64,000 nt of DNA from an uncultured Anaerolinea sp. (GTDB lineage: Bacteria > Chloroflexota > Anaerolineae > Anaerolineales > Villigracilaceae). The stretch's first letter is position 1; each line of letters opens with the position of its first letter. The position numbers were made by a program, and so were the translations under genes. Shown here piece after piece: positions 2,913 through 64,000 of this stretch. The stretch is from positions 8,866 to 72,865 of the forward strand of contig CAYWXS010000012.1 of NCBI GenBank assembly GCA_964462245.1, read 5' to 3'. The notes under the pieces were generated by a model that saw nothing but the letters and a program-made list of their open reading frames with translations, did not search any database and was not told the DNA's origin.

Positions 2913-2915
2913 ACC

Positions 2916-16048: not shown

Positions 16049-16095
16049 CTCACCTGATAAAAGTTGGATTTGGGTGAATAATTTATTTCTATCAA

Positions 16096-16135: not shown

Positions 16136-16172
16136 GCATATTTGAATTCTGCTGCTGACTTGAGGAGAACGT

Positions 16173-21537: not shown

Positions 21538-21685
21538 GCGAATCTCCTCATTTAGAAAGCCGGGATATTCCCGATGATAAGTTAGAAACAAACAAAATGA
21601 TTTTACTACGTCATTTCGCGCAGGGGTTGGTTAGCAGGCAGGACTCTTGCATTGCTATAATAATATTACAGAAATGCTCTTTTCA

Positions 21686-22156: not shown

Positions 22157-22195
22157 CGGATTTTCCCGGACTATTTTTGAGAATACCTGTTTAAC

Positions 22196-22816: not shown

Positions 22817-22819
22817 GAG

Positions 22820-24049: not shown

Positions 24050-24119
24050 GGGTATGCCTCTGTATATTTATTTCAAGTTGCCTGAATAATTCGTGTTATT
24101 TCCATGAGAAAAGCGTGGA

Positions 24120-39381: not shown

Positions 39382-40380
39382 ATGCTCCCATCAGTCTCTG
39401 TGATCGTACCCTGCTTAAACGAAGAAAAGCGTATCCGCAAATTATTGGATGCGATATATTCTCAAACCTATCCGGGTGCACAGTTAAGCGTAATTATTGC
39501 TGATGGTGGTTCAACCGACCATTCACGTGCAGTCATTACGCAATTCCAGTCTGAACATCCGTTTTTACGGTTACAGGTTGTCGATAACCCACTTGGAACC
39601 ATCCCGGCTGGACTAAATTGTGCCATAAAAGCTTCGGATGGTGAAATTCTTCTGCGGTTGGATGCACATTCTGCTCCGTACCCCGATTATGTGGAAAACT
39701 CAGTCAATGCTCTATTGACTGGCAAAGGGCAAAATGTAGGTGGTGTCTGGGAAATCCATCCTGGTTCCGAAACTTGGATCGCCAGGTCCATTGCCCGGGC
39801 TGCTGCCCATCCATTGGGTGTGGGTGATGCTCTTTATCGTCATGCACAGAAGGCAGCAATTGTGGATACCGTCCCTTTTGGATGTTTTCGCAGATCTTTG
39901 GTGGATCAAATTGGTGGCTACGATGAGACTTTGCTCACCAATGAAGATTATGAGTTCAATACTCGCATTCGCCAAATCGGCGGTAGAATCTGGTTGGACC
40001 CTACAATTCGATCCGTTTATTTTGCCCGCCCAGACATGGTTAGCCTGGCCCAACAATATATCCGCTATGGGTTCTGGAAGTTAAAAATGCTGCGTCGCTA
40101 TCCCGGCACGCTGCGTTGGCGTCAGGCTTTGCCGCCACTATTTACTGTCAGTTTATTGGTGGGTTTCGTTCTATCCATATTCTCTCGCTTATTTGGATGG
40201 TTACTGCTTATTGAACTTGCAGGATATTTCCTTATTCTAGGTTCTGTGAGTTTGCGCCTTGCGTTTAAAAATAAAGAATTTTTCCTGATCGCCGGTCTCC
40301 CGTTGGCAATTGCGGTTATGCATATAGCCTGGGGTGGTGGCTTTTTGTGGAGTATTTTTTCAGAAAAGTGGAATTCCTAA
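39382..40380 (+). CDS. Family 2 glycosyltransferase with C-terminal membrane segments
   Basis: VSVIVPCLNEE and ADGGSTDHS motifs, and a hydrophobic C-terminal region. Confidence 0.82.
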   Translation: MLPSVSVIVPCLNEEKRIRKLLDAIYSQTYPGAQLSVIIADGGSTDHSRAVITQFQSEHPFLRLQVVDNPLGTIPAGLNCAIKASDGEILLRLDAHSAPYPDYVENSVNALLTGKGQNVGGVWEIHPGSETWIARSIARAAAHPLGVGDALYRHAQKAAIVDTVPFGCFRRSLVDQIGGYDETLLTNEDYEFNTRIRQIGGRIWLDPTIRSVYFARPDMVSLAQQYIRYGFWKLKMLRRYPGTLRWRQALPPLFTVSLLVGFVLSIFSRLFGWLLLIELAGYFLILGSVSLRLAFKNKEFFLIAGLPLAIAVMHIAWGGGFLWSIFSEKWNS

Positions 40381-40383
40381 CCA

Positions 40384-41805
40384 ATGTCTTCTGAAACAAA
40401 ACCTACCTGGCGCTTGCGACCAGGTGAACAACGTGCGTTATTATTCTTTGGCGACCTTGTAATGGCTGTTCTGGCATTGCTTGCCGGGCTTTATTTTTGG
40501 TTTGCCGGAGATGCCTGGTTAAAGAAATTTTCGCTTGAATTTTTCCGGTTGCGGGTTCAGTTTTGGTTTTATCTTCTGCCGGGCGTTTGGATGCTTTTAT
40601 TAATTGAGATCTATGACTTGCACCGGGCTGCGAATTGGGGGAAAACACTTCGGGCGGTGACTATCGCTGGAATGGTGGCTGGCTTTGCTTATTTGCTAGT
40701 GTATTTTACAGCCATCGATCCTGGACGTATCAATCGGCGTGCCATTGCCGTTTTTATTATCCTGGCTATTATTCTGACGCTGATCTGGCGTTGGATTTAC
40801 ATTCGCATGGTAACCTCGCAAGGTATGCAGAGACGGGTGCTGGTAGTTGGTGCCGGTGGCAACGGCCAGTCTCTGGCGCAAATTTACAAAGCCATCAATC
40901 CACCGCCATTTAACTTGATTGCATATATTGACGATGATCCATTGAAGCAAGGTAAAGATGTAGAAGGGTTTCGTATCATAGCAGGTAGTAATAAGTTATT
41001 GCGACTGATTGACGAAATGAATGTTACCGAGGTGGTGGTTTCCATCACAGGCGAAATGCTGGGTGAAACTTTTCAAACGCTCCTGGATGTCCAGGAACAT
41101 GGCATCGAAATAATCCGTATGCCAACCCTCTATGAAGAATTGTTGGGGCGTGTACCCATTCATCATCTCGAATCGGATTGGATCATTCGTTCTTTTGTGG
41201 ACCAAGCTCGTTCAGGAAGTTTTTTCGAGATTGGTAAGCGTTTATTGGACATTATAGGCTCTATAGTAGGGTTACTGATCCTAGTTATTTTGTTGCCATT
41301 CTTGTCAATTGCCATAGTGATCGACAGTGGATGGCCTATATTTTATTCACAAGAACGTCTGGGCCGTGGAGGGCACCAATTCAAGATTATCAAATTACGC
41401 ACCATGCGTCAGGATGCCGAAAAAGAAGGTAAACCCCAGATGGCGGGCGAAAATGATGCGCGGATAACGAGGGTGGGCAATTTTATGCGCACCACTCGCC
41501 TGGATGAAATCCCCCAGTTTTGGAATGTACTTCGTGGTGAAATGAGTATTGTTGGTCCTCGAGCAGAGCGTGCCCAATGGGTGTCTACTTTTCAACAGGA
41601 GATTCCTTTTTATCGTGCGCGCTTGATGGTTAAGCCGGGTATCACGGGTTGGGCTCAGATCAATTACGGTTATGCTGCCACGGTGGAGGATACCGCTGTA
41701 AAACTTGAGTACGATTTATACTACATCAAACATCGATCAGTGATGATGGATATTGTCATCATACTGCGTACCATTAGTACGGTTTTAGGCCGAAAGGGCA
41801 GATAA
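40384..41805 (+). CDS. Polyprenyl-phosphate glycosyl-1-phosphate (priming) sugar transferase
   Basis: N-terminal TM segments. The C-terminal bacterial sugar-transferase domain has RLDEIPQFWNVLRGEMSIVGPR. Confidence 0.88.
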   Translation: MSSETKPTWRLRPGEQRALLFFGDLVMAVLALLAGLYFWFAGDAWLKKFSLEFFRLRVQFWFYLLPGVWMLLLIEIYDLHRAANWGKTLRAVTIAGMVAGFAYLLVYFTAIDPGRINRRAIAVFIILAIILTLIWRWIYIRMVTSQGMQRRVLVVGAGGNGQSLAQIYKAINPPPFNLIAYIDDDPLKQGKDVEGFRIIAGSNKLLRLIDEMNVTEVVVSITGEMLGETFQTLLDVQEHGIEIIRMPTLYEELLGRVPIHHLESDWIIRSFVDQARSGSFFEIGKRLLDIIGSIVGLLILVILLPFLSIAIVIDSGWPIFYSQERLGRGGHQFKIIKLRTMRQDAEKEGKPQMAGENDARITRVGNFMRTTRLDEIPQFWNVLRGEMSIVGPRAERAQWVSTFQQEIPFYRARLMVKPGITGWAQINYGYAATVEDTAVKLEYDLYYIKHRSVMMDIVIILRTISTVLGRKGR

Positions 41806-42734
41806 TGAAGCGTTACCTGGTTACCGGCGGCGCCGGGTTTATTGGCTCACATTTGGTTCGTACCCTGCTTGAGCAGGGTAATTTTGTGCGCGTTTTGGAT
41901 AATTTTTCCACTGGTAGATCTGAAAATTTGTCTGGTTTGGATATCGAGCTTGTTGAAGGTGATCTACGTGACCCGGGCATTACTGCTCGTGCTGTTGAAG
42001 GTGTGGATATTGTCTTTCACGAGGCTGCTTTTGTCTCTGTGCCGCAGTCAATGGAGGATCCACTCCCGTGTTTTGAGATCAATCAACATGGTACCGAAAT
42101 TCTATTGGAATCTGCCCGTAAAGCTGGGGTAGGCCGGGTAGTACTGGCTTCATCTGCTGCGGTCTATGGTGAATCGCAAGATCAGCCCTTGAGTGAAGAA
42201 GCCCAGTTATATCCATTCTCGCCATATGCGGTTTCCAAGCGCGTTGATGAATTATATGCCGCGATGTATACCCGCTCCTTTGGTTTGGATGTGGTTGCTC
42301 TGCGTTATTTTAACGTTTATGGTCCAAGACAGCGTCCGGATAGCATGTATGCTGCAGCGGTTCCCATTTTTACCCGTCGTCTGATCGATTCCAAACCTAT
42401 CAAGATCTATGGCGATGGTGGACAAACCAGGGACCTGGTTTTTGTAGGTGATATTGTCCGCGCCAACCTGATAGCTTCCGAACACCTAGCCGCACCCGGA
42501 CAAATCTTCAATATTTGTTCAGGTTCTGAAATCCGTGTGAGTGATCTGGTGGAGGCACTCATGTTGTTCTTTCCCTCTGCTCAGGCGCCAGTTTATGCAG
42601 CTGCCCGAGCGGGTGATATTTACCGGTCGGTCGGAAGTCCACGTAAAGCGGCGGAACTGTTGGGTTTCCACACCCAGACCAGTTTGTCTGAGGGTCTAAA
42701 GTCGGTTGTGGATTGGATGAAAGCAGCAGGATAG
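41805..42734 (+). CDS. NAD-dependent sugar epimerase/dehydratase (SDR)
   Basis: VTGGAGFIGSHL and SPYAVSK (YxxxK). The start overlaps the previous stop by 1 nt. Confidence 0.88.
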   Translation: MKRYLVTGGAGFIGSHLVRTLLEQGNFVRVLDNFSTGRSENLSGLDIELVEGDLRDPGITARAVEGVDIVFHEAAFVSVPQSMEDPLPCFEINQHGTEILLESARKAGVGRVVLASSAAVYGESQDQPLSEEAQLYPFSPYAVSKRVDELYAAMYTRSFGLDVVALRYFNVYGPRQRPDSMYAAAVPIFTRRLIDSKPIKIYGDGGQTRDLVFVGDIVRANLIASEHLAAPGQIFNICSGSEIRVSDLVEALMLFFPSAQAPVYAAARAGDIYRSVGSPRKAAELLGFHTQTSLSEGLKSVVDWMKAAG

Positions 42735-42768
42735 GCCAGCTGCCTGTCTCCAGCTATTTCCCATTTCT

Positions 42769-44652
42769 ATGAATCTACGTATTCGAAATCGCCTTGTTCT
42801 TCTTGTCGATCTTCTGCTCATCATTGTTTCGGTGTTGGGAAGTTATGCGCTGCGCCTGGAATTTACCCCGGACTTTGTCCGGTTTTATCTTCCAGGGGCT
42901 TTATGGCTGGCAGGGTTAGCTTTGCTGGTTAAACCGCTTGTTTATTATTTCTTTGGTCTTTATCGGCGTTTATGGATTTACGCAAGCATCAACGAACTCA
43001 AGCTGATTGCCACGGCGGTTTCCAGTGCGTCAATATTATTGTCGGTTATTTACGTCACTCTCTTCTGGTTGGGGGTCTTTGGGCCTGGCTTTCCTCGCTC
43101 GGTTCTGGCAATTGACTGGCTGCTCTCGCTATTTTTGATTGGTGGCACACGTTTTGCACTGCGGATTTTAGCCGAATCGGGCGCTCCTCGCAGGGCAGAT
43201 AAAACGCGTAAGATCATCGTAATTGGCGCAGGGGATGCAGGAGCGTTGGTTGTCAAGGAAATGCAAAAAAATCGATTGATCAGCCTGGAGCCGCTTGGGT
43301 TCCTGGATGACGATCCTGCAAAACAGAACCATTCCCTGTTGGGTGTGCCTGTAATTGGGGTATTGACTGACCTGGTAAAAGTGCTGGATGAGCGCCCGGT
43401 TGATGAAGTTATCATTGCCATTCCCTCCGCTCCTGGGCGGGTTGTGCGCCTTGTTGCGGATATTTGCCGCCTCAAGGGTGTGCCTTTTCGCACCATGCCT
43501 GGTATTTATGAATTATTAGGTGGTAAGGTTAACGTCAGCCGGCTGCGCGAGGTCGAAATCACTGATCTTTTGCGGCGCGAACCAGTCCGGATCCATGAAG
43601 AGTTGATTGGGCAGGTATTGGAGGGAAAGCGTGTCCTTGTAACAGGTGCTGGTGGTTCGATAGGTCGCGAATTATGCCGCCAGATTGCGCGTTGGAATGC
43701 TGCCAGCCTGGTTTTACTTGGTCATGGTGAAAATAGCATTTTTGAAGCCCTATTGGAACTCAAGAATGATTACCCTACACTTGAACTAATCCCTGTCATA
43801 GCGGATGTACGTGATACTGTGCGTATGCAGGCAGTTTTTGAGCAATACAAGCCGCAGGTTGTTTTCCATGCTGCGGCCCACAAGCACGTTCCTCTGATGC
43901 AGACCAATGTCGAAGAAGCTGTTGCGAATAATATTCTTGGTACGCTGAATGTAGTTGAAACTGCTGATCGCTGTGGAGTGCAGCGGCTTGTGCTTATTTC
44001 TACAGACAAAGCTGTCCATCCTGCCAATGTTTATGGTGCCACCAAGCGTATGGCAGAAATGATTGTGCTGGATGCAGCCCGGCGAACCGGTAAGGAATTT
44101 TCGGTGGTCCGTTTTGGAAATGTCCTGGGGAGTCGCGGTTCGGTTGTACCACTTTTTAAACGGATGATTGCCAACGGTGGCCCACTTCAAATTACCCACC
44201 CAGATATGTTTCGCTTTTTCATGACCATTCCCGAAGCAGTGCATCTGGTTTTACAAGCTGCAGCCATGGGTAAGGGTGGTGAAGCCTTTCTACTCAATAT
44301 GGGCGAGCAAGTTCGAATTTTGGACCTTGCGGAAGACCTCATTCGTCTTTCCGGTTTGGAGCCTGGACGGGATATTGAAATAGTCTTCACCGGCGTACGC
44401 CCGGGTGAAAAGCTGCGTGAAGAATTATGGGAAACTGATAAGACCTATGATCCCACTGCCCATCCGGATATTTTCCGTTCCATGGATGAAGTAATGGTCA
44501 GCAAAGAAGTGCTGCACACCAGCCTTCGCCGCCTGGTTGATCTGGTCAAAGATAGTTGTCCGGATGAAATCATCAATCTTTTGGATGAAGTTGTTCCGGG
44601 ATCCGCCATCCGTGCGACTCTGTCTCCAGTGGATGTGACTGATGTGGTCTGA
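42769..44652 (+). CDS. Membrane-anchored CapD/PglF/WbpM-type nucleotide-sugar 4,6-dehydratase
   Basis: Four N-terminal hydrophobic segments. VTGAGGSIGREL and NVYGATKRMAE motifs. 627 aa. Confidence 0.88.
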   Translation: MNLRIRNRLVLLVDLLLIIVSVLGSYALRLEFTPDFVRFYLPGALWLAGLALLVKPLVYYFFGLYRRLWIYASINELKLIATAVSSASILLSVIYVTLFWLGVFGPGFPRSVLAIDWLLSLFLIGGTRFALRILAESGAPRRADKTRKIIVIGAGDAGALVVKEMQKNRLISLEPLGFLDDDPAKQNHSLLGVPVIGVLTDLVKVLDERPVDEVIIAIPSAPGRVVRLVADICRLKGVPFRTMPGIYELLGGKVNVSRLREVEITDLLRREPVRIHEELIGQVLEGKRVLVTGAGGSIGRELCRQIARWNAASLVLLGHGENSIFEALLELKNDYPTLELIPVIADVRDTVRMQAVFEQYKPQVVFHAAAHKHVPLMQTNVEEAVANNILGTLNVVETADRCGVQRLVLISTDKAVHPANVYGATKRMAEMIVLDAARRTGKEFSVVRFGNVLGSRGSVVPLFKRMIANGGPLQITHPDMFRFFMTIPEAVHLVLQAAAMGKGGEAFLLNMGEQVRILDLAEDLIRLSGLEPGRDIEIVFTGVRPGEKLREELWETDKTYDPTAHPDIFRSMDEVMVSKEVLHTSLRRLVDLVKDSCPDEIINLLDEVVPGSAIRATLSPVDVTDVV

Positions 44653-44676
44653 CCTGGAAGGCTGATAAAACCCCCT

Positions 44677-45672
44677 ATGCCCCTGGTTTCTATTTCTGAA
44701 TGGCAGGCCTTTTTAACCCAACACCCTGAAGCCCATGTTTTGCAAACGGCTGAATGGGGTGCATTGAAATCGGCTTTTGATTGGGACGTGCTGCGAGTTG
44801 TCTCCGGTTCTGAAGGGGTACAGCTTCTGTTTCGGCACTTGCCGCTTGGTTTTAGCATCGCTTATGCCCCTAAACCATTAGATGGAACGGGCTTCCTCTC
44901 CTTGAGCGATTCGTTTCGGGCGGAGATTGACAAAGTTTGCCGTAAAAAGCGTGCAGTCTTCCTTAAAATTGAACTGGATACATGGGATTCGGAAACAATC
45001 ACGTCCCTGCCGGATTCCTGGCCCTTGCTACCCTCTCCGCACAACATTCAACCACCTCGTACAGTCGTCATTTCGCTTATTGGCAGTGAGGAAGAACTTC
45101 TGGCTCGTATGAAACAGAAATGCCGGTATAACATTCGATTGGCTGAGAAAAAAGGGGTGACGATTCGTGTCTGGGATGATTTGGAAGGGTTCCACCAACT
45201 AATGCAGGTGACAGGTGGCCGGGACGGTTTTGGGGTACATTCCCTGGCCTATTATCGTAAAGCTTACGAATTGTTCCAGCCGGCTGGTATGGCTGAATTG
45301 CTGCTGGCTGAATTTGAAGGTAAACCCCTGGCAGCATTGATGATTTTTGCGAGGGGTAATCGCAGTTGGTATCTGTATGGTGCTTCCAACGATAATGAAC
45401 GCAACCGTATGCCTACTTATCTGCTGCAGTGGCATGCCATGCAGTGGGCCAGGGCGCATGGCTGTACAGAGTACGACTTGTGGGGAGTGCCGGATGAAGA
45501 CGAACCCGGTTTAGAATCACAATTTGAAACACGACACGACGGGCTGTGGGGGGTATATCGTTTCAAGCGTGGTTTTGGTGGGCAGGTTGTGCGGGCCAGG
45601 CAAGCGCTTGACCGGGTCTATCTGCCACTGCTTTACCGTTTTTATGTCTGGCGTATGGGTCAGGCTATCTAA
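44677..45672 (+). CDS. FemAB-family aminoacyl-tRNA-dependent peptidyl/aminoacyl transferase
   Basis: FemAB-like pattern HVLQTAEWGALKS...CRYNIRLAEKKG...YLYGASNDNERNRMPTYLLQWHAMQWARAHGCTEYDLWGV. Confidence 0.75.
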   Translation: MPLVSISEWQAFLTQHPEAHVLQTAEWGALKSAFDWDVLRVVSGSEGVQLLFRHLPLGFSIAYAPKPLDGTGFLSLSDSFRAEIDKVCRKKRAVFLKIELDTWDSETITSLPDSWPLLPSPHNIQPPRTVVISLIGSEEELLARMKQKCRYNIRLAEKKGVTIRVWDDLEGFHQLMQVTGGRDGFGVHSLAYYRKAYELFQPAGMAELLLAEFEGKPLAALMIFARGNRSWYLYGASNDNERNRMPTYLLQWHAMQWARAHGCTEYDLWGVPDEDEPGLESQFETRHDGLWGVYRFKRGFGGQVVRARQALDRVYLPLLYRFYVWRMGQAI

Positions 45673-53878: not shown

Positions 53879-54352
53879 TTACTCAGGTTGGAGAATGATT
53901 TTGCGCGATTGAGCGTAGCGCACCAGGTCGGGTGTCGGGTTTTCGTATTCCTGATTCATCAGATTGGATGAAATGATGAAATCTGCAGTGGCTCGATTGG
54001 AGGCAGTGGGGATATTGTACAAGACAGCCAGCCGCAGCAGGGCTTTGATATCCGGGTCATGTGGTTGTTGTTCGAGCGGATCCCAGAAAAAGATCAGAAA
54101 ATCGATCTTTCCTTCTGCGATTTTTGCACCGATCTGTTGGTCACCGCCGATTGGTCCGCTTTTGAACTGCGTAATCGGCAGCCCCAATTCGTTTTCCAGC
54201 AGGCTGCCGGTTGTGCCGGTACCAAATAAGTGGTGACGGGAGAGGGTTTCGCGGTTAAAGCGTGTCCATTCCAGTAAATCTTTTTTCTTATTGTCATGGG
54301 CTACCAGCGCGATACGTTTTTTTACACCAATAATTGAATTGGGAAATGTCAT
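53879..54352 (-). CDS. mgsA: Methylglyoxal synthase
   Basis: IALVAHDNKKKDLLEW, GTGTTG, GPIGGDQQIGA and FFWDPLEQQPHDPD motifs. Confidence 0.9.
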   Translation of the reverse strand: MTFPNSIIGVKKRIALVAHDNKKKDLLEWTRFNRETLSRHHLFGTGTTGSLLENELGLPITQFKSGPIGGDQQIGAKIAEGKIDFLIFFWDPLEQQPHDPDIKALLRLAVLYNIPTASNRATADFIISSNLMNQEYENPTPDLVRYAQSRKIILQPE

Positions 54353-54455
54353 TTTTACCTTGCCTTTTTTTTAGAATTGGTTCTTTTGGTTCCAATCGAA
54401 TCTGGGAGAGTAAGTTCCGGTGGGGGACTGGTTTTTGACCATATTTTCGGAAGAT

Positions 54456-54485
54456 ATAAAAAATCCCCGCATGAGCGGGGATTTT
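54456..54485 (-). terminator. Intrinsic terminator after the LysM protein gene (minus strand)
   Basis: AAAATCCCCGC-atga-GCGGGGATTTT. A T-run follows on the minus strand, 5 nt after the stop. Confidence 0.85.
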
Positions 54486-54490
54486 CATGC

Positions 54491-55654
54491 TTATGGTTTG
54501 GGAGTTGCTTCCGGCGCTACGCCCTGCCAGGAAAAAACACGCTGCGATGATTTTTCGCCAGCACTATCCCAGAGAGGTTGTCCCTGGTCATCTGTGCCGG
54601 TTTGCCGTGCGGTGGAAATAAACCAGCGGAAGATGTGCGGTGCGCTATCCTTGGGACGGAATGAGACCGGCACGATATATTTTGTATCGTTAACGTAATC
54701 GATCAAACGGCGTCCCTGACCTTCGGTCACATCTTCGATGGTAACAACATAGGATTCATTGTCACGTAGTGTGCCAATCGAAGCCCACTGCAGGGTGATG
54801 TTGTCGTTTGCCAGCGTGAAGGATGCGCCGTCTGCAGGTAAGAGTAGATTGGCGGCTGGGTAAGGCGGTGGAATGGTGGCGGTGGGAGTGGGGCCTGGGG
54901 TTGCCGCCCGTTCGCAAAGTGGAATGGTCAGGTTCATCCCGAGGAAAACAGTATCGGTGCTTAACCCATTGTATGATTTGATTGCATCGCCAGGTACGGC
55001 GTAATTAGCCGAAATTGTTCCCAGTGTGTCGCCGTTCTGAACGGTATAAATTACCTTTTCACAGGCTGCCAGGGTGGCTGCGGCCGATTCCAGGGTACTC
55101 GTTGCTGCGGGAAGCGGAGTGGGCGTTGGATAGGGGATTTGGATGACCTGCCCAATTGAAAGACTGTTGCAGGAAGCTGGCAGGTTGTTCAGGATGATGA
55201 TGCTCTGGACTGAGACGTCAAAACTGACAGCAATGGATGTACAGGTATCGCCGGTCGAGATAGTGTAATCGTGCGGCGGCTGTAAAGTTGCTGTCGGGAT
55301 GGGTGTAGAAGTTACTGCTTCTGTGAATGCCACCGTGACAGTCAGTGTTGGGGTGGCGGTAGGTGTGCCTGCATTCGGGCTTGCTGCAGTGGTTTTGTCA
55401 CCTGTCAGACGCAGTATAAAAAACACCAAAGCTGCGCCAACGATCAGAAACAATGCAAGCAGACCCAGCACAGCCGGTAGGCTGAGCGTAATTTCGGGCA
55501 TGCGGCTGGCCTGAATGGCAGCTGGTTTTTTGGCTTCCATAGTCAGGTTTAGTTCCGTGCCGCACACCAGGCAGCGTGTGGCATTTTCCGCCAGGCGTGT
55601 ACCGCAGGTGGGGCAAATTTTAGTATTTGGGGTTAATGTGGTTTCTGGACTCAT
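54491..55654 (-). CDS. Zinc-ribbon / TM / double LysM peptidoglycan-binding protein
   Basis: N-terminal CPTCGTRLAENATRCLVCGTEL and one TM helix. Two LysM repeats: YTISTGDTCTSIAVSFDVSVQSIIILNNL and YTVQNGDTLGTISANYAVPGDAIKSYNGL. Confidence 0.82.
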   Translation of the reverse strand: MSPETTLTPNTKICPTCGTRLAENATRCLVCGTELNLTMEAKKPAAIQASRMPEITLSLPAVLGLLALFLIVGAALVFFILRLTGDKTTAASPNAGTPTATPTLTVTVAFTEAVTSTPIPTATLQPPHDYTISTGDTCTSIAVSFDVSVQSIIILNNLPASCNSLSIGQVIQIPYPTPTPLPAATSTLESAAATLAACEKVIYTVQNGDTLGTISANYAVPGDAIKSYNGLSTDTVFLGMNLTIPLCERAATPGPTPTATIPPPYPAANLLLPADGASFTLANDNITLQWASIGTLRDNESYVVTIEDVTEGQGRRLIDYVNDTKYIVPVSFRPKDSAPHIFRWFISTARQTGTDDQGQPLWDSAGEKSSQRVFSWQGVAPEATPKP

Positions 55655-55731
55655 ACAAGCGAAAATTATACCATGCTAAAACAACCTCAAAACATCCGCG
55701 TAATGGTCGTTATGCCTATGATTTTATATCC

Positions 55732-55761
55732 TGACTCACCAACCTTTTACTCTGCTATAAT
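55732..55761 (+). promoter_or_regulatory. Candidate promoter (TGACTC-18 nt-TATAAT) placing the transcription start at or near the E1-alpha ATG (leaderless)
   Basis: TATAAT at 55756-55761 is followed by 5 nt and then the ATG at 55767. No Shine-Dalgarno sequence is present. Confidence 0.35.
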
Positions 55762-55766
55762 TCAGC

Positions 55767-56684
55767 ATGATGACCAATAACTATGATCTCTACTATAACA
55801 TGCTGCTCATTCGCCGGTTTGAAGAGCGAGCTCTGGCAGAATTTTCTGCCGGAAAATTGTTTGGTACCACCCATGCTTACACCGGTCAGGAAGCGGATGC
55901 GGCAGCCATTTTTTCGGTCACCGCTTCTGATGACATCGTCTGGAGTAATCATCGTTGTCATGGGCACTTTCTTGCTTATGGGGGGGATCCTTACCGATTG
56001 GCAGCCGAGCTGATGGGTAAAGCTACCGGCCTGGTAGGTGGGCGGGGAGGAAGTCAGCATATCCATTGGCGTAATTTTTATTCCAATGGTATCCAGGGGG
56101 GCATAGTTCCAGTGGCTACCGGTATGGCTTTGGCTCAAAAATTGCAAAAAAAAACGGACATTGCTCTGGTATTCAGTGGCGATGGGACATTAGGCGAAGG
56201 GGCTGTTTATGAGAGCCTTAATATTGCCGCATTATGGCAGATCCCGATCCTGTTTGTGGTCGAGGATAATCGTTATGCCCAGACCACGCCGACTGACAAA
56301 GGGGTTAGTGGTTCCATGCGGGCTCGGTTTGAGGCTTTTGGCATACATACTTTCGAAGCTGATTCCAGCGATGTGCTTGTGATTCGCCAGCTGGCCGAAG
56401 AAGCCGTTCAGATAGTTCGCCAAAAGAGTCAACCAGCGGCGCTTGTGCTGCATACATATCGCTTTGGGGCTCATAGCAAGGGTGATGACCCGCGCAATCG
56501 TGAAGAGATTGCCAAAATTCGAGATCAATTTGACCCATTGATTATTCATTCTGCCCGACTTTCCGAGACCGAGTTGGCTCAGGCAGAAATAGAAGTAGCG
56601 GAGCAAATAGATCAGGCTTTTACTCGTGCTTTTGCCGATCCATTCCCACAGTTGCTGGAAAATGTTCAGCCTAACGAGGCTTGA
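55767..56684 (+). CDS. Thiamine-diphosphate-dependent 2-oxoacid dehydrogenase E1 alpha subunit
   Basis: FGTTHAYTGQEA and the ThDP motif GDGTLGEGAVYESLNIAALWQIPILFVVEDNRYA. Confidence 0.88.
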   Translation: MMTNNYDLYYNMLLIRRFEERALAEFSAGKLFGTTHAYTGQEADAAAIFSVTASDDIVWSNHRCHGHFLAYGGDPYRLAAELMGKATGLVGGRGGSQHIHWRNFYSNGIQGGIVPVATGMALAQKLQKKTDIALVFSGDGTLGEGAVYESLNIAALWQIPILFVVEDNRYAQTTPTDKGVSGSMRARFEAFGIHTFEADSSDVLVIRQLAEEAVQIVRQKSQPAALVLHTYRFGAHSKGDDPRNREEIAKIRDQFDPLIIHSARLSETELAQAEIEVAEQIDQAFTRAFADPFPQLLENVQPNEA

Positions 56685-56733
56685 GTAGGTGGAAATCCTG
56701 CTTCCTTCCATAATCTATAACCAATAAGAGTCT

Positions 56734-57738
56734 ATGCCAACCGTCCTCGAACGTCTCAATTTCGCTCTTCAGCATGTGATGGAAACCGATGAACGGGTTT
56801 ATTTAATCGGTGAAGATATCCTTGATCCATATGGTGGTGCCTTCAAGGTGACCAAAGGTCTTTCCACGCGTTTCCCTGAGCGGGTCTTGACTACTCCCAT
56901 TTCGGAATCGGCTATTGTTGGCATCAGCAGCGGGTTGGCGATGCGTGGGCTGCGTCCGGTGGCTGAAATTATGTTTGGCGATTTCGTCACCTTGACTGCT
57001 GACCAGCTCATCAATCATGCTGCTAAATTCCGCTGGATGTATAACGACCAGGTGCGCGTGCCGATTGTGGTACGTGCACCAATGGGGGGCAGGCGTGGTT
57101 ATGGGCCAACCCATTCGCAATCTTTGGAAAAACTTTTTCTGGGTGTGCCCGGTCTGCGCGTGGTGGCTCCCAATGCGCTTCAGGATCCGGCAGGGTTACT
57201 GCAGGCTGCAATTCTGCAAGACGAAGGTCCCATCCTGTTTATTGAACATAAGCTGCTTTATACCTGTTCTCTCCTGGAACCGGGTAAAGCTGAACTACTG
57301 GATTTCCAGATCGAAACAAGTGCGGAACCCTTCCCGGTTTCTGTCCTGCGCTTTCCGGCGGTTCTACATGGACAATTAACTATTGCGACTTATGGCTATA
57401 ACTTTGAGTTGGCCAGGGCTGCAGCGCTGAAACTGGCTTACGAATATGAGATTTTTGCAGAAATAGTGCTCTTCAGCCAACTCAGTCCCTTTGAGATTGA
57501 TCCGTTGATAGCTTCAGTGCGCCGAACAGGGCACTTACTGACGATCGAAGAGGGGACCCAGCCTGTGGGTTGGGGGGCAGAAATATCTGCTCAGGCAGCA
57601 GAAAAACTGCCTGGTTTAAAAATTCGGCGTGCGGCTGCGCTTAATCTGCCGATTGCAAATGCTAAAACACTCGAAGATGCCATCCTGCCCTCGCAGGAAA
57701 AAATTCTAAAGCTTGCCCTTGAAATTCTAAAAAAGTAG
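56734..57738 (+). CDS. 2-oxoacid dehydrogenase E1 beta subunit
   Basis: VLTTPISESAIVGISSGLAMRGLRPVAEIMFGDF and a transketolase-C-like C-terminus. Confidence 0.88.
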   Translation: MPTVLERLNFALQHVMETDERVYLIGEDILDPYGGAFKVTKGLSTRFPERVLTTPISESAIVGISSGLAMRGLRPVAEIMFGDFVTLTADQLINHAAKFRWMYNDQVRVPIVVRAPMGGRRGYGPTHSQSLEKLFLGVPGLRVVAPNALQDPAGLLQAAILQDEGPILFIEHKLLYTCSLLEPGKAELLDFQIETSAEPFPVSVLRFPAVLHGQLTIATYGYNFELARAAALKLAYEYEIFAEIVLFSQLSPFEIDPLIASVRRTGHLLTIEEGTQPVGWGAEISAQAAEKLPGLKIRRAAALNLPIANAKTLEDAILPSQEKILKLALEILKK

Positions 57739-57745
57739 GAATATT

Positions 57746-58852
57746 ATGGCCACTTCTCCCATTCTTGTGCCGCTATTAAACGCCAATGAGCCTGAGGCTC
57801 GTCTGGTCACAATCCATACCAGGGATGGTGCACCTGTAAAAAAAGGTGATTTACTCTTTACCATTGAAACAACCAAAGCTGCGGCGGAAATTGATGCACC
57901 GGAGACTGGTTTTTTTAGATTATTAGCTGCCGAAGATACTACCTTTGCTGTTGGGGATATCCTGGCTTTTATTACTACTGCAGCAGATGAAACGCTGCCA
58001 AAAATGCCCGCCAGCGCTTTATCAATCAGCGCAGCGTTGGAACCAGCAATTACAGGGTCTGTGTCTGGCGAATTGCGTATGACCCGGCCTGCGCGTGAAC
58101 TGGCCCAGGTTTTGGGTCTGGACCTCTCCACGCTGCCTCGTGATCGTTTGATCACTGAAGCTTTGCTGCGACAGTTGACCCAAGCCCCTTCCCAGGATAT
58201 ATCTGTGCCATTGAATGCCCCGATTGTTATCTATGGCGCAGGTGGACATGCTAAGGCTGTGATGGAAATGGTCCGGGCTTTGGGTACTTTTCAGATTGCT
58301 GGGATCGTAGATGATAACCCTGCTCTAACGGGGAGTTCTGTATTGGGGATCCAGGTTTTAGGAACCCGTGAAATACTCAGTCGATTATACGAGCAGGGCA
58401 TTCACCTGGCTGCCAACGGTGTGGGTGGGATTATCAATATCGGAATTCGTATCAACCTGTTCCAACTGCTCGGCATGCAAGGTTTTGCCTTTCCGGCTTT
58501 ATGTCATCCGCGTGCCACGCTGGAAGCCTCAGCGCATGTTTTTGATGGAGTGCAGGTCTTTGCGAATGCCTATGTTGGTTCGTCCGCTGTACTTCACGAA
58601 AAGTGTATGATTAATACGGGTGCGATCATCTCGCATGACTGTCACATCGGTGCATATTCGCATATTGCGCCGGGTGCCCTGTTGGCTGGGCACGTGGTGG
58701 TTGGGGAAAAAGCGCTGGTCGGTATGGGTGTTACCACCGCCATCGGTATTCGCATCGGTTCTGGAGCACGTATTGGCAATGGCGCCATCCTGCTGGCGGA
58801 TGTGCCGGAAAGGGCAATTGTCCCGGCTGGCAAGGTTTGGACTGCTTCGTAA
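57746..58852 (+). CDS. Lipoyl domain + subunit-binding-like segment fused to a NeuD/PglD-type left-handed beta-helix acyltransferase (non-canonical E2 position)
   Basis: N-terminal lipoyl-type motif DLLFTIETTKAAAEIDAPETG. PSBD-like segment RMTRPARELAQVLGLDLSTL. The C-terminus has IVIYGAGGHAKAVMEMV...IAGIVDD, then hexapeptide repeats with TGAIISHDCHIGAYSHIAPGALLAG, matching the NeuD/PglD family pattern. There is no DHRxxDG E2 catalytic motif. Confidence 0.7.
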   Translation: MATSPILVPLLNANEPEARLVTIHTRDGAPVKKGDLLFTIETTKAAAEIDAPETGFFRLLAAEDTTFAVGDILAFITTAADETLPKMPASALSISAALEPAITGSVSGELRMTRPARELAQVLGLDLSTLPRDRLITEALLRQLTQAPSQDISVPLNAPIVIYGAGGHAKAVMEMVRALGTFQIAGIVDDNPALTGSSVLGIQVLGTREILSRLYEQGIHLAANGVGGIINIGIRINLFQLLGMQGFAFPALCHPRATLEASAHVFDGVQVFANAYVGSSAVLHEKCMINTGAIISHDCHIGAYSHIAPGALLAGHVVVGEKALVGMGVTTAIGIRIGSGARIGNGAILLADVPERAIVPAGKVWTAS

Positions 58853-58898
58853 TAATTTGTCGAGTAATTATCTGTTTTTACAAAAAATTGGAGTTAAC

Positions 58899-59777
58899 AT
58901 GATCGATCCTGTAATTTTTTCGTTTCATATCGGTACTTTTGAATTCGCGCTGCGCTGGTATGGCATATTGGTCATGCTGGGTGTGGTGGTTGCTGGTTGG
59001 TTCGCCAGTCGGGAAGTTGCCCGCCGTGGAGAAAATGGCGAATCGGTCTGGGATGCGCTGATCTGGATTTTGCCCGCTGGCATTGTTGGGGCACGCTTGT
59101 GGTATGTGGCCAATGCCACCCTGGGTGGTAATATGTACTATGCTCAAAACCCGATCCAGATTATGAATATTCCACAGGGTGGCTTGCATTTTTATGGCGG
59201 CTTGTTATTTGGTGCGGTTGCGATGGCCTTCTATCTACGGCAGTACAAAATGGATTTCTGGCTCTTTCTGGATGCTATTGCGCCTGCCACCTTGCTGGGG
59301 CAGGCTATCGCACGTCCTGCCAATTTTATCAACCAGGAATTATATGGTCAGCCAACCACATTACCATGGGGTATTCCAATTGATGCAGTCCATCGACTTG
59401 GCATTTATCAGGACATGGTGCAATTTCCGGCTGCAACAACTCGATTCCATCCGACCTTTGCTTATGAGATGATCTGGAATTTCCTGACATTTGCACTTAT
59501 CATTTTTATTTCGCGTCGCTTTGCCGGGCAAATTAAACCGGGGACATTATTCTTTGGTTGGTTGGTGGCGGCTGGGTTGGGTCGTTTCCTGATTGAGTTC
59601 TTTCGACCGGATCAGCCGCATCTCGGGACTTCTTGGGTTAGCACCACACAGGTGGTGACCATCCTGATGATGATCGCTGGGTTACTCTTACTGGCTTATC
59701 GTTTCGGAAAGCTGAAGCTTCCGCTGCCGGCTTTGCCTGATGAATATAAGCTGGCGCCTGCTGTAAAAAAGGCCTGA
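58899..59777 (+). CDS. lgt: Prolipoprotein diacylglyceryl transferase
   Basis: MIDPVIFSFHIGTFEFALRWYGILVMLG and the HPTFAYEMIWN motif. GGAG precedes the ATG at 58899. The upstream 279 nt of the track ORF overlap the previous gene. Confidence 0.88.
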   Translation: MIDPVIFSFHIGTFEFALRWYGILVMLGVVVAGWFASREVARRGENGESVWDALIWILPAGIVGARLWYVANATLGGNMYYAQNPIQIMNIPQGGLHFYGGLLFGAVAMAFYLRQYKMDFWLFLDAIAPATLLGQAIARPANFINQELYGQPTTLPWGIPIDAVHRLGIYQDMVQFPAATTRFHPTFAYEMIWNFLTFALIIFISRRFAGQIKPGTLFFGWLVAAGLGRFLIEFFRPDQPHLGTSWVSTTQVVTILMMIAGLLLLAYRFGKLKLPLPALPDEYKLAPAVKKA

Positions 59778-59787
59778 AAAGAATAAT

Positions 59788-59823
59788 AAAAGGTCCCCTC
59801 TCAAATAATGATGGGGACCTTTT
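59788..59823. terminator. Bidirectional terminator between lgt and the sulfotransferase gene
   Basis: AAAAGGTCCCC (59788-59798) pairs with GGGGACCTTTT (59813-59823). Confidence 0.8.
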
Positions 59824-59834
59824 ATATTATTTAA

Positions 59835-61058
59835 TTAGTCGCCAGCCAGGGGTACTTCGGCTGAAAAGATCGGCATGATTTGTGGTCTCACGGGCGCAGG
59901 TTTATTTTGTTCGCGCCGGTCAAAATTAAAGCGATCAAAAATATCATCAAATTCACGCAGGATCTCTTCGTGACTGAAACCCATTTCTTCATAATGATAG
60001 ACATGGTCACTATGGTAACTGTGGGTTTCTTCAATTGCGACTTGAATAATGTGGTCCAGACCGGAGTTTTTGGTATAGCCAAACTGCTCGTATATTGTAC
60101 GGATGATTTGATCCGGCCAGCGGATCAGGTCATCATAATTCAGAATCATCTTTGTGGGTGACGGGTTCTCGTCCATGACTTTAAGCGGGTGGTGGTACCA
60201 GTATTTGGTTAGCGCCAGAACATGGTCGCGGTACAAGTATTTTTGCCCCGGTTCGCTAAAGACATTCCATGCATAACTCAGCCACGAGATGGTGGAGGGC
60301 AGCATGTCCAATGGGTTGCGTGCCAGGTAAAGGATGCGTGCATCCGGGAAGAACTCCAGCAGTGTCTCGATTTTTGCGCTGGAAGCCGGGCTTTTAGAGA
60401 CGAAGTGGCTTTTGCCACCGGTGGCGTAAATATGCCGTTGTATGCAAGCCCGGTAAAAACCCATGATACGTTTTTTTTCAGAATCCGGCAGGGCATCATC
60501 GAAAAATTGGTACGGTGGCATGTCATCCAAAAATGGGAAAAGAAAACTGACAAAGAATGTGGACCAGGCATGCAACAGGATATTCTCATCTTCTTCGGGT
60601 TCGAAGAGGCTGATTTTGTGGATATGGACCTTACCCAATGATTGTTTATCAATGTTCCGGAGCGCATTCACCAGTGGGCTACCAAATATCCGGTCGATTT
60701 TGGCCATGCCCCGGAACATTTTGCGCTGTGTGATGGATGGCATCAGGAAGATATCCCAGGTGCGCAGGCTGGTAAACATATCTGCATCGCGTGAAAGCAG
60801 GCGGTGCAGGAAGGTAGAGCCGCTGCGAAAATTGCCAAGAATGAAGAGCGGTTTTTCGATGGCTTGTTGTTTGTAGGCTGGGAAGAGTAAGTCGTCCAGA
60901 AAAAAACATAACCAGGTAAACAGAGACCAACCCGGCCAGACGGTATAAAAGATGAGTAGAAATGTGATGCGCTTGCGGGTGAGTTTCCCGTAGGTGTCTT
61001 TGGATTTAAAAACTGAACGGTATGCCAGTCGCCAGAACAGGCGGAAATTGTATGCCAT
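59835..61058 (-). CDS. Sulfotransferase-family protein with N-terminal membrane segment
   Basis: 5'-PSB-like GNFRSGSTFLHRLL and 3'-PB-like YLARNPLDMLPSTISW. A hydrophobic N-terminal helix is present. Confidence 0.72.
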   Translation of the reverse strand: MAYNFRLFWRLAYRSVFKSKDTYGKLTRKRITFLLIFYTVWPGWSLFTWLCFFLDDLLFPAYKQQAIEKPLFILGNFRSGSTFLHRLLSRDADMFTSLRTWDIFLMPSITQRKMFRGMAKIDRIFGSPLVNALRNIDKQSLGKVHIHKISLFEPEEDENILLHAWSTFFVSFLFPFLDDMPPYQFFDDALPDSEKKRIMGFYRACIQRHIYATGGKSHFVSKSPASSAKIETLLEFFPDARILYLARNPLDMLPSTISWLSYAWNVFSEPGQKYLYRDHVLALTKYWYHHPLKVMDENPSPTKMILNYDDLIRWPDQIIRTIYEQFGYTKNSGLDHIIQVAIEETHSYHSDHVYHYEEMGFSHEEILREFDDIFDRFNFDRREQNKPAPVRPQIMPIFSAEVPLAGD

Positions 61059-62362: not shown

Positions 62363-64000
62363 TTAGATATTTTGTTTTTCGCTACCATTGCGCAGTGAGG
62401 TAACTGCTGCAAACATGGCGCGGTTGACGCCTATAAGCTGTTCGTAAGGAATAGGTGCCATGCCCTCGCGAATGCCTTTGACCAGGGCTTGCATTTCACC
62501 AAAGTGGCCTTTATCCTGTTTGAAGGCGGATTTAATAATTTTACGATTACCGTTTTCGACCATTAGCAGTGATCGATAGTCATCCAGCACTGCAATTCGT
62601 CCAGCGCAAAAGACTTCCACGCGTTCCTTGGCAAAGGATTTATCGCCGTTTGCCAGGTAATCGACTACAGCGGTGGAACCATCAGCAAAGCTGAAGGTCA
62701 TGCTGACGTTATCTTCACGGTATTTGCCCAGATTCGGCAGGGCCTGGGTTTGGACAGAGATTGGGGCTGACCCAACCAGAAAGCTGACGAAATCCACAAA
62801 GTGACAACCTTCGCCAATGATGCGTCCGCCGCCCTGTTCCGGGTCTTGTGTCCAGTGATTGAGTGGGATATAGCCGGCGTTGACCCGATAGTGTGCGTAT
62901 AGCGGCTCACTACGGCTTTGCAAAAATTTCTTAAGTTCCACCGCCAGTGGCGCAAAGCGCCGGTTGAAACCCATCATTAACAGACCAGTATTTGTGTTTT
63001 GGAGCTGGATACTGACTTTTTCCAACTGTTCAACTGTGATGGCCAGCGGTTTTTCAACGAAAACGTTTTTGCCCGCCTGCAGGGCACGAATGGTCAGGTC
63101 GGCGTGTGTATCATGCCGGGTGAGGATGGCAACCGTGTTAACTTCGGGGTCATTCAAAATTTGCTCATCGTCTGAACAGGCGTAAGTAAATCCGAATTTT
63201 TTCCCGGAGTGTTGAGCGTGCATCCCGCTGGCTGAGGCAATGCCCATCAGTTGGATTTCGTTGATCTTTTTGATGGCTGGCAATAGAGTGGCATTGGCAA
63301 ACAGGCCTGCACCCAACACTCCCAATTTTACTGTGCTGGCTGGTTTTGAACCGGTTACCTGAAACCGGATCACGCTGGACGCCGGTCTTGCCCCACCTGG
63401 GTAGATCAGGACGACACCCAGAAAGGGCACTTTCGTTCTGCCAGTGATAATTTCGTAAGCATCGGGTGCTGATTCGATTGGGAAGCGTTGGGTGATGAGC
63501 GGAGCGACCTGCAGCTTGCCGGTTTCCAGCAGTTCCACGATGGTCTGAAAGTTGCGGCCTTCGGTCCACCGTACGTAACCAATGGGGTAATCCTTGCCCT
63601 TTTCTTCATAAGCAGGATCATAGCGCCCGGGTCCATAGGAACGCGAATTGATGAAGGACAGTTCTTTTTCAAAGTAGATTTTGCGAGGAAAACTTAAACC
63701 GACTGCACCGGTTGCCACAATTTTAGCGCGATCGCGGGCAATTGCCCCAGCCAGCTCGATTGGGTCATTGGAATGTGTATCGGCGCAGATGATAACACTG
63801 TCGAAACCGCGGTTGGCGGTAAAAGACTGGCTTGCCTCTGGCGCGTCTGGTCGAGCTACTGCTTCGATCCCGAACTGCCGGGCGAGTTGGACACGTTCAG
63901 GGTTGGTGTCGATACCAAAGACTTTACAGCCAGCGGCTGCCGCAATCTGAATGGTGAGCAGTCCCAGCAGCCCCAAACCGATGACCGCTACACGTTCGCC
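62363..64000 (-). CDS. Bi-domain oxidoreductase (Zn-ADH/MDR-like N-terminal part plus Gfo/Idh/MocA domain), 5' end beyond the right window edge
   Basis: The frame stays open past the track's Met (...GERVAVIGLGLLGLLTIQIAAAAGCKVFGID is an MDR Rossmann fold). A second Rossmann fold KLGVLGAGLFANATLLPAI begins a Gfo/Idh/MocA-type domain. Confidence 0.75.
   Translation of the reverse strand, partial: GERVAVIGLGLLGLLTIQIAAAAGCKVFGIDTNPERVQLARQFGIEAVARPDAPEASQSFTANRGFDSVIICADTHSNDPIELAGAIARDRAKIVATGAVGLSFPRKIYFEKELSFINSRSYGPGRYDPAYEEKGKDYPIGYVRWTEGRNFQTIVELLETGKLQVAPLITQRFPIESAPDAYEIITGRTKVPFLGVVLIYPGGARPASSVIRFQVTGSKPASTVKLGVLGAGLFANATLLPAIKKINEIQLMGIASASGMHAQHSGKKFGFTYACSDDEQILNDPEVNTVAILTRHDTHADLTIRALQAGKNVFVEKPLAITVEQLEKVSIQLQNTNTGLLMMGFNRRFAPLAVELKKFLQSRSEPLYAHYRVNAGYIPLNHWTQDPEQGGGRIIGEGCHFVDFVSFLVGSAPISVQTQALPNLGKYREDNVSMTFSFADGSTAVVDYLANGDKSFAKERVEVFCAGRIAVLDDYRSLLMVENGNRKIIKSAFKQDKGHFGEMQALVKGIREGMAPIPYEQLIGVNRAMFAAVTSLRNGSEKQNI

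Follow-up and report, generated by a model that had tools for sequence, protein, structure and literature searches.

An E1 translationally coupled to a lipoyl-bearing PglD-type acyltransferase suggests a new route for acylating cell-surface glycans

To our knowledge, the lipoyl arm has so far been known only from 2-oxoacid dehydrogenases, the glycine cleavage system, and the QncL-type feeder of a nonribosomal peptide synthetase (NRPS) pathway. The AcoC-type E2 of acetoin dehydrogenase, which acts in acetoin catabolism with coenzyme A (CoA) as the acceptor, joins a lipoyl domain to an alpha/beta-hydrolase fold. Among sugar acyltransferases, LpxA and LpxD have a left-handed beta-helix and move the acyl group of an acyl carrier protein (ACP) thioester to a UDP-amino or hydroxy sugar, and in known amino-sugar pathways, the slot beside DegT, the dehydratase, and PglC is held by acetyltransferases of the PglD, VioB, PerB, or LegH type. 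In the QncN/QncL/QncM and SclQ1-4 systems, a C2 unit is supplied to a natural-product pathway, and not to central metabolism, by a pyruvate dehydrogenase (PDH)/transketolase-type E1 together with a lipoyl-bearing acyltransferase; this glycolicacyl-unit system (QncN/L, NapB/NapD, or SclQ1-4) serves tetrahydroisoquinoline and scleric acid biosynthesis (PMC6335953). Here, we analyze a stretch of 64,000 nucleotides (nt) from an uncultured Anaerolinea sp. (the window), in which three genes at positions 55767 to 58852 encode the two subunits of a thiamine diphosphate (ThDP)-dependent E1 and a fusion protein that carries a lipoyl domain on a PglD-type acyltransferase.

As judged from its gene layout, the E1 is translationally coupled to a fusion protein built like an E2, and the three genes are best explained as one autonomous module for producing an acyl group and handing it on. 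Relatives of this module appear to take the place of the acetyltransferase in amino-sugar pathways, hinting at a new route for acylating cell-surface glycans. The genes follow one another closely, with 49 nt between E1 alpha and E1 beta and 7 nt between the E1 beta stop codon and the fusion start codon:

55767-56684, plus strand: E1 alpha (ThDP-binding), 305 amino acids (aa); PF00676 (E1_dh), 2.9e-55
56734-57738, plus strand: E1 beta, 334 aa; PF02779 (Transket_pyr), 1.1e-32, and PF02780 (Transketolase_C), 3.5e-15
57746-58852, plus strand: fusion of a lipoyl domain, a segment like a peripheral-subunit-binding domain (PSBD), and a PglD-type acyltransferase, 368 aa; from Pfam, NCBIfam, PDB search, AlphaFold2 (AF2), and Foldseek

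Open reading frames (ORFs) and Pfam agree with the initial annotation of three linked genes, the first two being E1 alpha and E1 beta. Read from its sequence, the E1 is complete, intact, and of the heterotetramer type (alpha plus beta). Its alpha subunit contains the ThDP/Mg motif GDG...EDNRY (GDG-x26-DN) at residue 138 and the His of an AHS motif at 236, and its beta subunit contains the cofactor-activating Glu motif PISE at residue 56; the roles of these residues (ThDP/Mg binding, reductive acylation for the AHS His, and cofactor activation for the PISE Glu) are presumed from human PDH E1. By sequence comparison, both subunits are closest to PDH-type E1. In PDB searches, E1 alpha is closest to human PDH E1 alpha (3.9e-45), and E1 beta, whose neighbors are archaeal or human E1 beta, matches 1ik6 at 9e-52. 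The best NCBIfam model for E1 alpha is TIGR03182 (PDH_E1_alph_y), which it matches at 256 bits, below the cutoff of 393.85, and the match of E1 beta to NF006667 (PDH E1 beta), at 210 bits, is likewise under the cutoff of 321. Promoter and terminator scans of positions 55400 to 60000 yielded counts no higher than those in shuffled sequences and are therefore uninformative on operon structure.

The fusion protein is composed of four parts:

57746-57979, plus strand: lipoyl domain, residues 1-78; PF00364, 4.3e-08 when scanned alone; codon of K44 at 57875-57877
58067-58183, plus strand: PSBD-like two-helix segment, residues 108-146, from the linker profile and AF2, flanked by disordered linkers at residues 93-106 and 147-153
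58217-58477, plus strand: PglD_N Rossmann-like lobe, residues 158-244; PF17836, 8e-12; contains the GAGGHAK motif and D189
58493-58825, plus strand: left-handed beta-helix acyltransferase domain, residues 250-360; Hexapep, 7.4e-12; contains N290 and D298, with the codon of the catalytic His297 at 58634-58636

When the whole protein is scanned, Pfam places Biotin_lipoyl at residues 20-75 and PglD_N at residues 160-221 and also recovers Hexapep (PF00132). The motifs on which the fusion was originally recognized are all present, with FTIETTKAAAEIDAPETG at residue 38 (including K44), RPARELAQVLGLDLSTL at 114, YGAGGHAK at 163, and ISHDCHIG at 295, and DHRxxDG is absent, as had been reported. An AF2 model generated from a 60-sequence alignment has a mean predicted local distance difference test score (pLDDT) of 90. 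The N-terminal lipoyl domain, claimed at the outset and recovered by PF00364, folds in this model into a beta-barrel (pLDDT, 87-97) that places K44 on the hairpin connecting strands 36-41 and 46-50.

The PSBD-like segment that had been proposed to follow is supported by a different route from the one expected. Pfam E3_binding (PF02817) matches neither the whole fusion nor the excised linker, even at E<=10, but a profile built from 49 family linkers and searched against PDB matches solved PSBDs (1w4i at E=1.6e-5, then 1w4j, 2eq9_C, 2eq8_C, 2cyu, 1w4h, 2btg, and 1bal), and AF2 predicts helices at residues 114-123 and 138-145 (pLDDT, ~86). The loop of the family segment is 3 residues shorter than in solved PSBDs in the profile alignment, and A116 is invariant within the segment in the family alignment. 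From the match of the linker profile to PSBDs, the fusion would be an E2 in everything but its catalytic end, and the predicted homology fits the recruitment of E1 and/or E3. The same profile also detects a PSBD-like segment at residues 39-73 of PDB 7qjm chain A, an "alpha/beta-hydrolase (202)" (E=3.3e-4).

Sequence and predicted fold identify the catalytic end as a trimeric PglD/PerB-type left-handed-beta-helix N-acyltransferase and not a chloramphenicol acetyltransferase (CAT)-like core. The fusion matches the NCBIfam model for NeuD/PglB/VioB proteins (TIGR03570) at 171.8 bits, over the curated cutoff of 160.8, and contains neither a Pfam match to 2-oxoacid_dh (PF00198) nor a DHR motif. In Foldseek comparisons with PDB, residues 158-360 align with PerB (4ea7) at a target TM-score of 0.90 and a root mean square deviation of 1.6 Å, with the acetyltransferase domain of Neisseria PglB (PglB-ATD) at 0.90, and with Campylobacter jejuni PglD at 0.87. 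E2 entries are matched through the N-terminal modules only, and the matches to residues 158-360 are confined to PglD/PerB-type folds, such that a canonical E2 core was ruled out for this domain. The closest solved relatives are PglB-ATD, PerB, VioB, PglD, and WeeI, all of them N-acetyltransferases of nucleoside diphosphate (NDP)-4-amino sugars. H297 aligns with the HDC-motif His of PerB and PglB-ATD; the PerB numbering (His141) agrees with the H141 mutant entries 4eaa and 4eab, and we take the PglD equivalent to be His125. Profile searches and Foldseek thus both bear out the NeuD/PglD-type assignment of the initial annotation, and by sequence and fold, the fusion belongs with NeuD/PglB/VioB proteins; that its donor is free acetyl-CoA is doubtful, given the coupling to E1. 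The C-terminal tail, considered as a marker of lost CoA binding, was dropped, its length being similar to that in stand-alone enzymes.

The pairing of the fusion with E1 extends far beyond the window. Among 173 loci annotated by tblastn, which comprise near-clade Chloroflexota, deeper Chloroflexota (43-48% identity), and metagenome sets, E1 lies directly upstream of the fusion in 38 of 44 near-clade, 25 of 26 deeper Chloroflexota, and 61 of 63 metagenome loci. Outside Chloroflexota, the alpha and beta parts of E1 are fused into one protein, usually of 640-685 aa, whose stop codon overlaps the start of the fusion. Nothing but E1 is conserved across all contexts, indicating that E1 and the fusion form a functional unit. 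No canonical E2 or E3 accompanies the pair among ~170 loci, with the sole exception of one locus (L173) in which an E3-like match at 5257-6612, 31% identical to the LpdA of the window, occurs ~1 kb downstream of the fusion. The space between E1 beta and the fusion, short in the window, is in some relatives filled by another gene: an antisense DUF4013 gene, absent from the window, in the close relatives L001 (9230-9907), L002 (7218-7904), and L003 (7222-7908), all on the minus strand, and a beta-propeller gene (5691-6977, plus strand) in L075.

A word-indexed search returned a 100% identical protein (P0001) and 119 other full-length relatives of 62-89% identity, mostly labelled Anaerolineales, and the annotated relatives are described merely as "NeuD/PglB/VioB family sugar acetyltransferase." An exhaustive search of 50%-identity representatives returned 461 clusters at E<=1e-30, and over 100 of the best 150 clusters align full length, down to ~30% identity, a recurrence well above what chance would produce. 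Relatives occur in 387 GTDB species representatives, the best 80 of which are almost all Chloroflexota; distant members are labelled Polaribacter, Dokdonia, Chitinophagaceae, Armatimonadota, and Pseudomonas sp. CCI3.2, and one locus is labelled Gemmatimonadales. Family alignments were made from 44 (A1), 26 (A2), and 60 (A4) diverse members, with A1 and A4 anchored on the window protein. K44, H297, and N290 are invariant in all three (members down to ~28% identity), H168 is invariant in A4, and for E41, G164, G166, G167, D189, and D298, conservation reaches 90% or more in A1, A4, or both. The invariance of K44, H297, and N290, together with the conservation of at least 90% in the N-lobe GGGGH...D motif, indicates that the arm and the acyltransferase site are under joint selection.

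Certain relatives depart from the typical form. P0201, P0262, P0151, P0178, P0173, and P0148 have the same architecture with longer linkers, and P0181 (865 aa) and P0216 (423 aa) consist of two to four tandem PglD_N-plus-hexapeptide units and are without a lipoyl domain. The unusually long relatives that were inspected include no Rosetta-stone fusion to DegT, E1, or PglC. A tblastn search of a plasmid collection with the Pseudomonas member recovered stand-alone NeuD-like genes only and no fusion. In L126, the match to the fusion gene is in two pieces (2903-3958 and 4109-4324) about 150 nt apart, possibly an insertion or a frameshifted copy.

The genomic contexts of the relatives point to amino sugars. 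Glycan-type neighbors are present in 28 of the 42 metagenome loci with enough flanking sequence (DegT in 22, Bac_transf in 15, a PglF-like dehydratase in 10, and NeuB in 4) and in 19 of 27 deeper Chloroflexota loci, where DegT (17/27) and Bac_transf (12/27) stand beside the trio. In the metagenome set, two gene orders recur, DegT-dehydratase-Bac_transf-E1-fusion and E1-fusion-DegT-dehydratase-Bac_transf. RmlA/flippase genes are also among the neighbors of the pair in other lineages. A second PglD-like gene lies within the flank in L149 only; elsewhere, the fusion is the sole candidate N-acyltransferase within the flank examined. Four loci, with genes assigned by Pfam, illustrate the range:

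L090: GT1, E1, fusion, Bac_transf, DegT, Polysacc_synt_2
L093: nonulosonic-acid-type cluster with NeuB, Epimerase_2, DegT, and a flippase
L174 (Chitinophagaceae): Wzz, dehydratases, NTP_transferase, flippase, DegT, E1, fusion, and TylF methyltransferase, then glycosyltransferases
L075 (Anaerolinea-labelled metagenome-assembled genome): PglC-sized Bac_transf, E1 alpha, E1 beta, beta-propeller, fusion, DegT, UbiA

In the mechanism that we favor, to which we assign a probability of roughly 0.5, the lipoyl arm would be charged with an acyl group by E1, and the hexapeptide domain would hand this group to an NDP-4-amino sugar. E1 would decarboxylate a short 2-oxo acid, for which pyruvate is the default guess, and reductively acylate lipoyl-K44; alternatively, as in QncN/QncL, hydroxypyruvate or a ketose phosphate could supply a C2 unit. 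The acyl-dihydrolipoyl arm would then swing to the active site of the hexapeptide domain in the same protein, where His297 would activate the 4-amino group of an NDP-4-amino-4,6-dideoxy-hexose and the amine would take the acyl group directly, the arm playing the part of acetyl-CoA for PglD or of acyl-ACP for LpxA/LpxD. The reduced arm would be re-oxidized by a dihydrolipoyl dehydrogenase from elsewhere, with lpdA as the candidate by inference, and the resulting N-acylated amino sugar would go into a surface glycan.

Across the family as a whole, the proposed path from E1 through the lipoyl arm and the PglD-type domain to a sugar has strong support from sequence and gene context, and the precedents of LpxA/LpxD and QncN/QncL/QncM make the arm-to-sugar logic credible by analogy. 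More tentative, and in our estimate somewhat short of an even chance, is the stricter claim that the lipoyl arm donates directly to NDP-amino sugars without an acyl-CoA intermediate, the ThDP-dependent E1 making the acyl group in situ. Under such a CoA-independent, redox-coupled scheme, the acyl group is possibly not acetyl (e.g., glycolyl, propionyl, or succinyl); a non-acetyl group would, we infer, better explain why the module exists, with acetyl from pyruvate remaining the default. Because amino-sugar genes are no longer adjacent in the Anaerolineales subclade of the window, the acceptor there is the least certain step.

Both an E3 and a glycan cluster are encoded in the window at some distance from the trio:

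20137-21591, minus strand: LpdA, dihydrolipoyl dehydrogenase; TIGR01350 at 569 bits against a cutoff of 408.8; ~34 kb from the trio
39382-45672, plus strand: glycan cluster with GT2, a WbaP-type Bac_transf (473 aa), an NAD epimerase/dehydratase, a 4,6-dehydratase, and FemAB; from Pfam and NCBIfam

As had been noted, no E3 stands beside the trio and lpdA is far away. The 3' end of the glycan cluster is ~10 kb upstream of the trio and is formed by a FemAB-family (aminoacyl-transferase-like) protein at 44677-45672; the 4,6-dehydratase, a PglF/WbpM-like membrane-anchored enzyme acting on UDP-N-acetylglucosamine (627 aa), lies 11-13 kb upstream. This cluster is a possible source of the acceptor. 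A bi-domain ADH_zinc_N plus GFO_IDH_MocA oxidoreductase, encoded at 62363-63976 on the minus strand, also occurs, at 15920-18115, in the glycan cluster around the pair in the unrelated contig L093 and for that reason may be sugar-related.

LpdA belongs to a canonical E1-E2-E3 operon (20137-26534, minus strand) with an unusually long fused E1 alpha-beta of 804 aa. Its E2 (22820-24049, minus strand; 409 aa) combines Biotin_lipoyl, E3_binding, and 2-oxoacid_dh and carries DHRILDGA at residue 385, in keeping with its original designation as the bona fide E2 of the window. Between this E2 and lpdA are genes for a class I S-adenosylmethionine-dependent methyltransferase (22196-22816) and a PEMT/ICMT-like protein (21686-22156), and a Glu/Leu/Phe/Val dehydrogenase gene (26880-28166, plus strand) is divergent from the operon. 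Assigning the operon to PDH, 2-oxoglutarate dehydrogenase (OGDH), or branched-chain 2-oxoacid dehydrogenase (BCKDH), which bears on whether the trio could be the sole PDH of the organism, was abandoned; NCBIfam results are ambiguous, with the E2 scoring about equally on SucB and PDH models, all below cutoff.

Several observations weigh against transfer to an amino sugar, some of them from the lineage of the window itself. An amino-sugar gene is present within ~7 kb in 0 of 42 loci of this subclade, and no DegT aminotransferase is encoded anywhere in the 64-kb window; the original proposal that the E1-charged arm hands its acyl group to a sugar is favored by the contexts of relatives (28/42 and 19/27) but not by those of its own subclade. 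Immediately upstream of E1 alpha are divergent genes for methylglyoxal synthase (mgsA) and a zinc-ribbon/LysM protein (53879-55654, minus strand), a pair kept throughout the subclade (L002, L003, L005-L012, and others) and absent from deeper relatives; flanks in other members contain PNPase/S15 or copper-homeostasis genes. The envelope- or glycan-type neighbors to which the initial annotation had appealed (LysM, Lgt, a sulfotransferase, a transglutaminase-like protein, and the ADH_zinc_N plus GFO_IDH_MocA oxidoreductase) are real, as confirmed through 53-92% identical L002 orthologues with Pfam matches, but they are kept only in this subclade, and such near-subclade conservation gives them slight functional weight; LysM, lgt, the sulfotransferase, and the transglutaminase were rejected as functional evidence.

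Other placements add to these objections. The pair is an orphan in Pseudomonas sp. CCI3.2, and in two Bacteroidota-type contigs (L088, positions 1-4926, from Dokdonia; L089, positions 1-7993), E1 plus the fusion closes an NRPS cluster with condensation, adenylation, and peptidyl carrier protein (PCP) domains, a thioesterase, a phosphopantetheinyl transferase (PPTase), a guanidinoacetate-N-methyltransferase-like gene, and a TonB receptor. The acceptor consequently probably differs between lineages, and the NRPS placements suggest an additional use of the module in secondary metabolism, like that of QncN/L/M. Moreover, the scores of E1 below the PDH equivalog cutoffs mean that the 2-oxo substrate is not fixed by sequence, and if the acyl group is acetyl, the gain over acetyl-CoA is not evident. 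The mechanism is itself a prediction, and thioester exchange with CoA, the E2 reaction, would be chemically as easy for the fold.

This last point leads to the alternative that survives best, although we regard it as unlikely: the hexapeptide domain would exchange a thioester between the acyl-dihydrolipoyl arm and CoA, in the reverse of the S-acetylation of dihydrolipoamide by acetyl-CoA. Acting as an alternative E2, the module would be a small PDH- or acetoin dehydrogenase-like complex making acyl-CoA; acting as a relay, a CoA held in the groove would pass the acyl group on to an amine. Such exchange would suit an E1 closest to the PDH type and a lipoyl-PSBD layout in the style of an E2, and the lipoyl region of the fusion matches NF011457 (acetoin dehydrogenase E2) best among E2 models. 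Non-CAT catalytic ends exist, as the match of the linker profile to an alpha/beta-hydrolase with a PSBD-like segment (7qjm) attests, and PglD-family enzymes bind CoA (complexes 4ea7, 4m99, and 3bsy). The housekeeping context in the subclade of the window (mgsA, citrate synthase, malate/lactate dehydrogenase, and PNPase), devoid of amino-sugar genes, also fits. However, a full canonical E1-E2-E3 operon is already present in the window, an E3-like gene is near the pair in only 1 of ~170 loci (L173), and the amine-acceptor residues N290, H297, and D298 and the nucleotide-lobe motif are unchanged between clades. Nor does thioester exchange account for the pair replacing PglD/VioB beside DegT, PglF, and PglC in most other lineages.

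It is considerably less probable that the fusion is a conventional acetyl-CoA-dependent sugar N-acetyltransferase whose lipoyl/PSBD part is regulatory, a scaffold, or vestigial and whose donor is not E1. Databases do label the protein a NeuD/PglB/VioB family sugar acetyltransferase, and its C-terminal 210 residues constitute a complete PglD/PerB-like enzyme, but the lipoyl and PSBD-like segments are kept to ~28% identity with K44 invariant, the E1 motifs are intact, and the adjacency of E1 is near universal, with overlapping frames, across phyla and unlike contexts. A vestigial N terminus is unlikely in view of the invariance of K44 and the near-universal pairing. Slightly less probable again is delivery of the acyl group to a carrier protein or to a non-sugar amine of a secondary metabolite, in the manner in which QncL charges the ACP QncM. 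This has a precedent in QncN/L/M (PMC6335953) and would account for L088 and L089, in which the pair follows NRPS condensation, adenylation, PCP, and thioesterase genes and a PPTase; however, NRPS genes occur in 2 of 42 surveyed loci as opposed to 28 of 42 for glycan genes, no NRPS, polyketide synthase, or carrier-protein gene is near the trio of the window, and the closest structural relatives all act on NDP-amino sugars. Finally, an artefactual two-gene fusion by frameshift or misassembly near 58200-58260, a possibility raised at the outset, has no supporting point and is excluded by the occurrence of the same continuous ORF, as a real single gene, in hundreds of independent assemblies from several phyla, and AF2 models all modules confidently, with only the E2-like flexible linkers disordered.

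If the favored mechanism is correct, protein-bound acyl-dihydrolipoyl would join acyl-CoA and acyl-ACP as a third kind of donor to sugar acyltransferases, and lipoate biochemistry would reach beyond central metabolism into envelope glycan synthesis. Such a route, widespread in Chloroflexota and Bacteroidota, would explain N-acyl groups on bacillosamine-, viosamine-, and nonulosonic-acid-type sugars in some bacteria and would tie glycan decoration to the 2-oxo-acid pool and the NAD+ redox state. Hundreds of genes now listed as NeuD/PglB/VioB "acetyltransferase" and "pyruvate dehydrogenase E1" would be parts of one machine; on the strength of the present labels, metabolic reconstruction of Anaerolineae can wrongly predict a PDH complex. 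For protein engineers, the fusion would be a natural example in which an unrelated trimeric acyltransferase has taken the place of the E2 catalytic core.

The literature contains no description of a lipoyl-NeuD/PglD fusion that we could find, in agreement with the initial annotation that no characterized example was known, although coverage of subscription journals was thin and prior work is possible. With the PDH, OGDH, and BCKDH complexes, the module shares a heterotetramer-type E1, a lipoyl lysine carried by a beta-hairpin, flexible linkers between domains, a putative PSBD-like pair of docking helices, a catalytic domain that forms trimers and places a general-base His at the interface between subunits, and a presumed dependence on E3. 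In contrast to a PDH-type E2, it has a PglD/PerB-type Rossmann-like lobe and left-handed beta-helix in place of the PF00198 core and is without DHRxxDG; its PSBD loop is shorter by ~3 residues and devoid of GTGxxG, it has no E3 gene beside it, it is expected to assemble as a trimer and not as a 24- or 60-mer, and the likely acceptor is an amine and not CoA. AcoC (NF011457) similarly joins E2-type N-terminal modules to a non-CAT catalytic domain, which is an alpha/beta-hydrolase there and a left-handed beta-helix in the fusion.

With PglD, PglB-ATD, PerB, VioB, and WeeI, the fusion shares the fold (target TM-scores of 0.87-0.90), the GxGGH motif of the N-lobe, the Asn...His-Asp/Glu motif, and the genomic slot beside a DegT aminotransferase, a 4,6-dehydratase, and a PglC-like transferase. 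It differs from them in its ~155-residue N-terminal lipoyl-plus-PSBD extension, in its obligatory pairing with E1, and in its proposed donor, which would be its own acyl-lipoyl arm and not free acetyl-CoA. The carrier of LpxA and LpxD is a separate phosphopantetheine ACP, whereas the fusion has its own covalently attached lipoyl domain, which a ThDP enzyme would charge. Likeness to the Qnc and Scl systems is by lengths and domain order only, SclQ2/SclQ3 being 305/338 aa and the E1 of the window 305/334 aa (PMC6335953), and by the location of two members of the fusion family in NRPS clusters. In the QncN/QncL type, E1 transfers a glycolaldehyde unit from a ketose phosphate, and the acyltransferase part of QncL/SclQ4, which passes the unit to a dedicated ACP, has been described as E2-like (an "acyltransferase catalytic domain"); that of the fusion is a hexapeptide sugar N-acyltransferase, with no ACP gene conserved next to the pair in the annotated loci. 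Compared with all of these systems, the module is an E1-plus-lipoyl-arm multienzyme whose nonhomologous catalytic domain probably serves a new class of acceptor.

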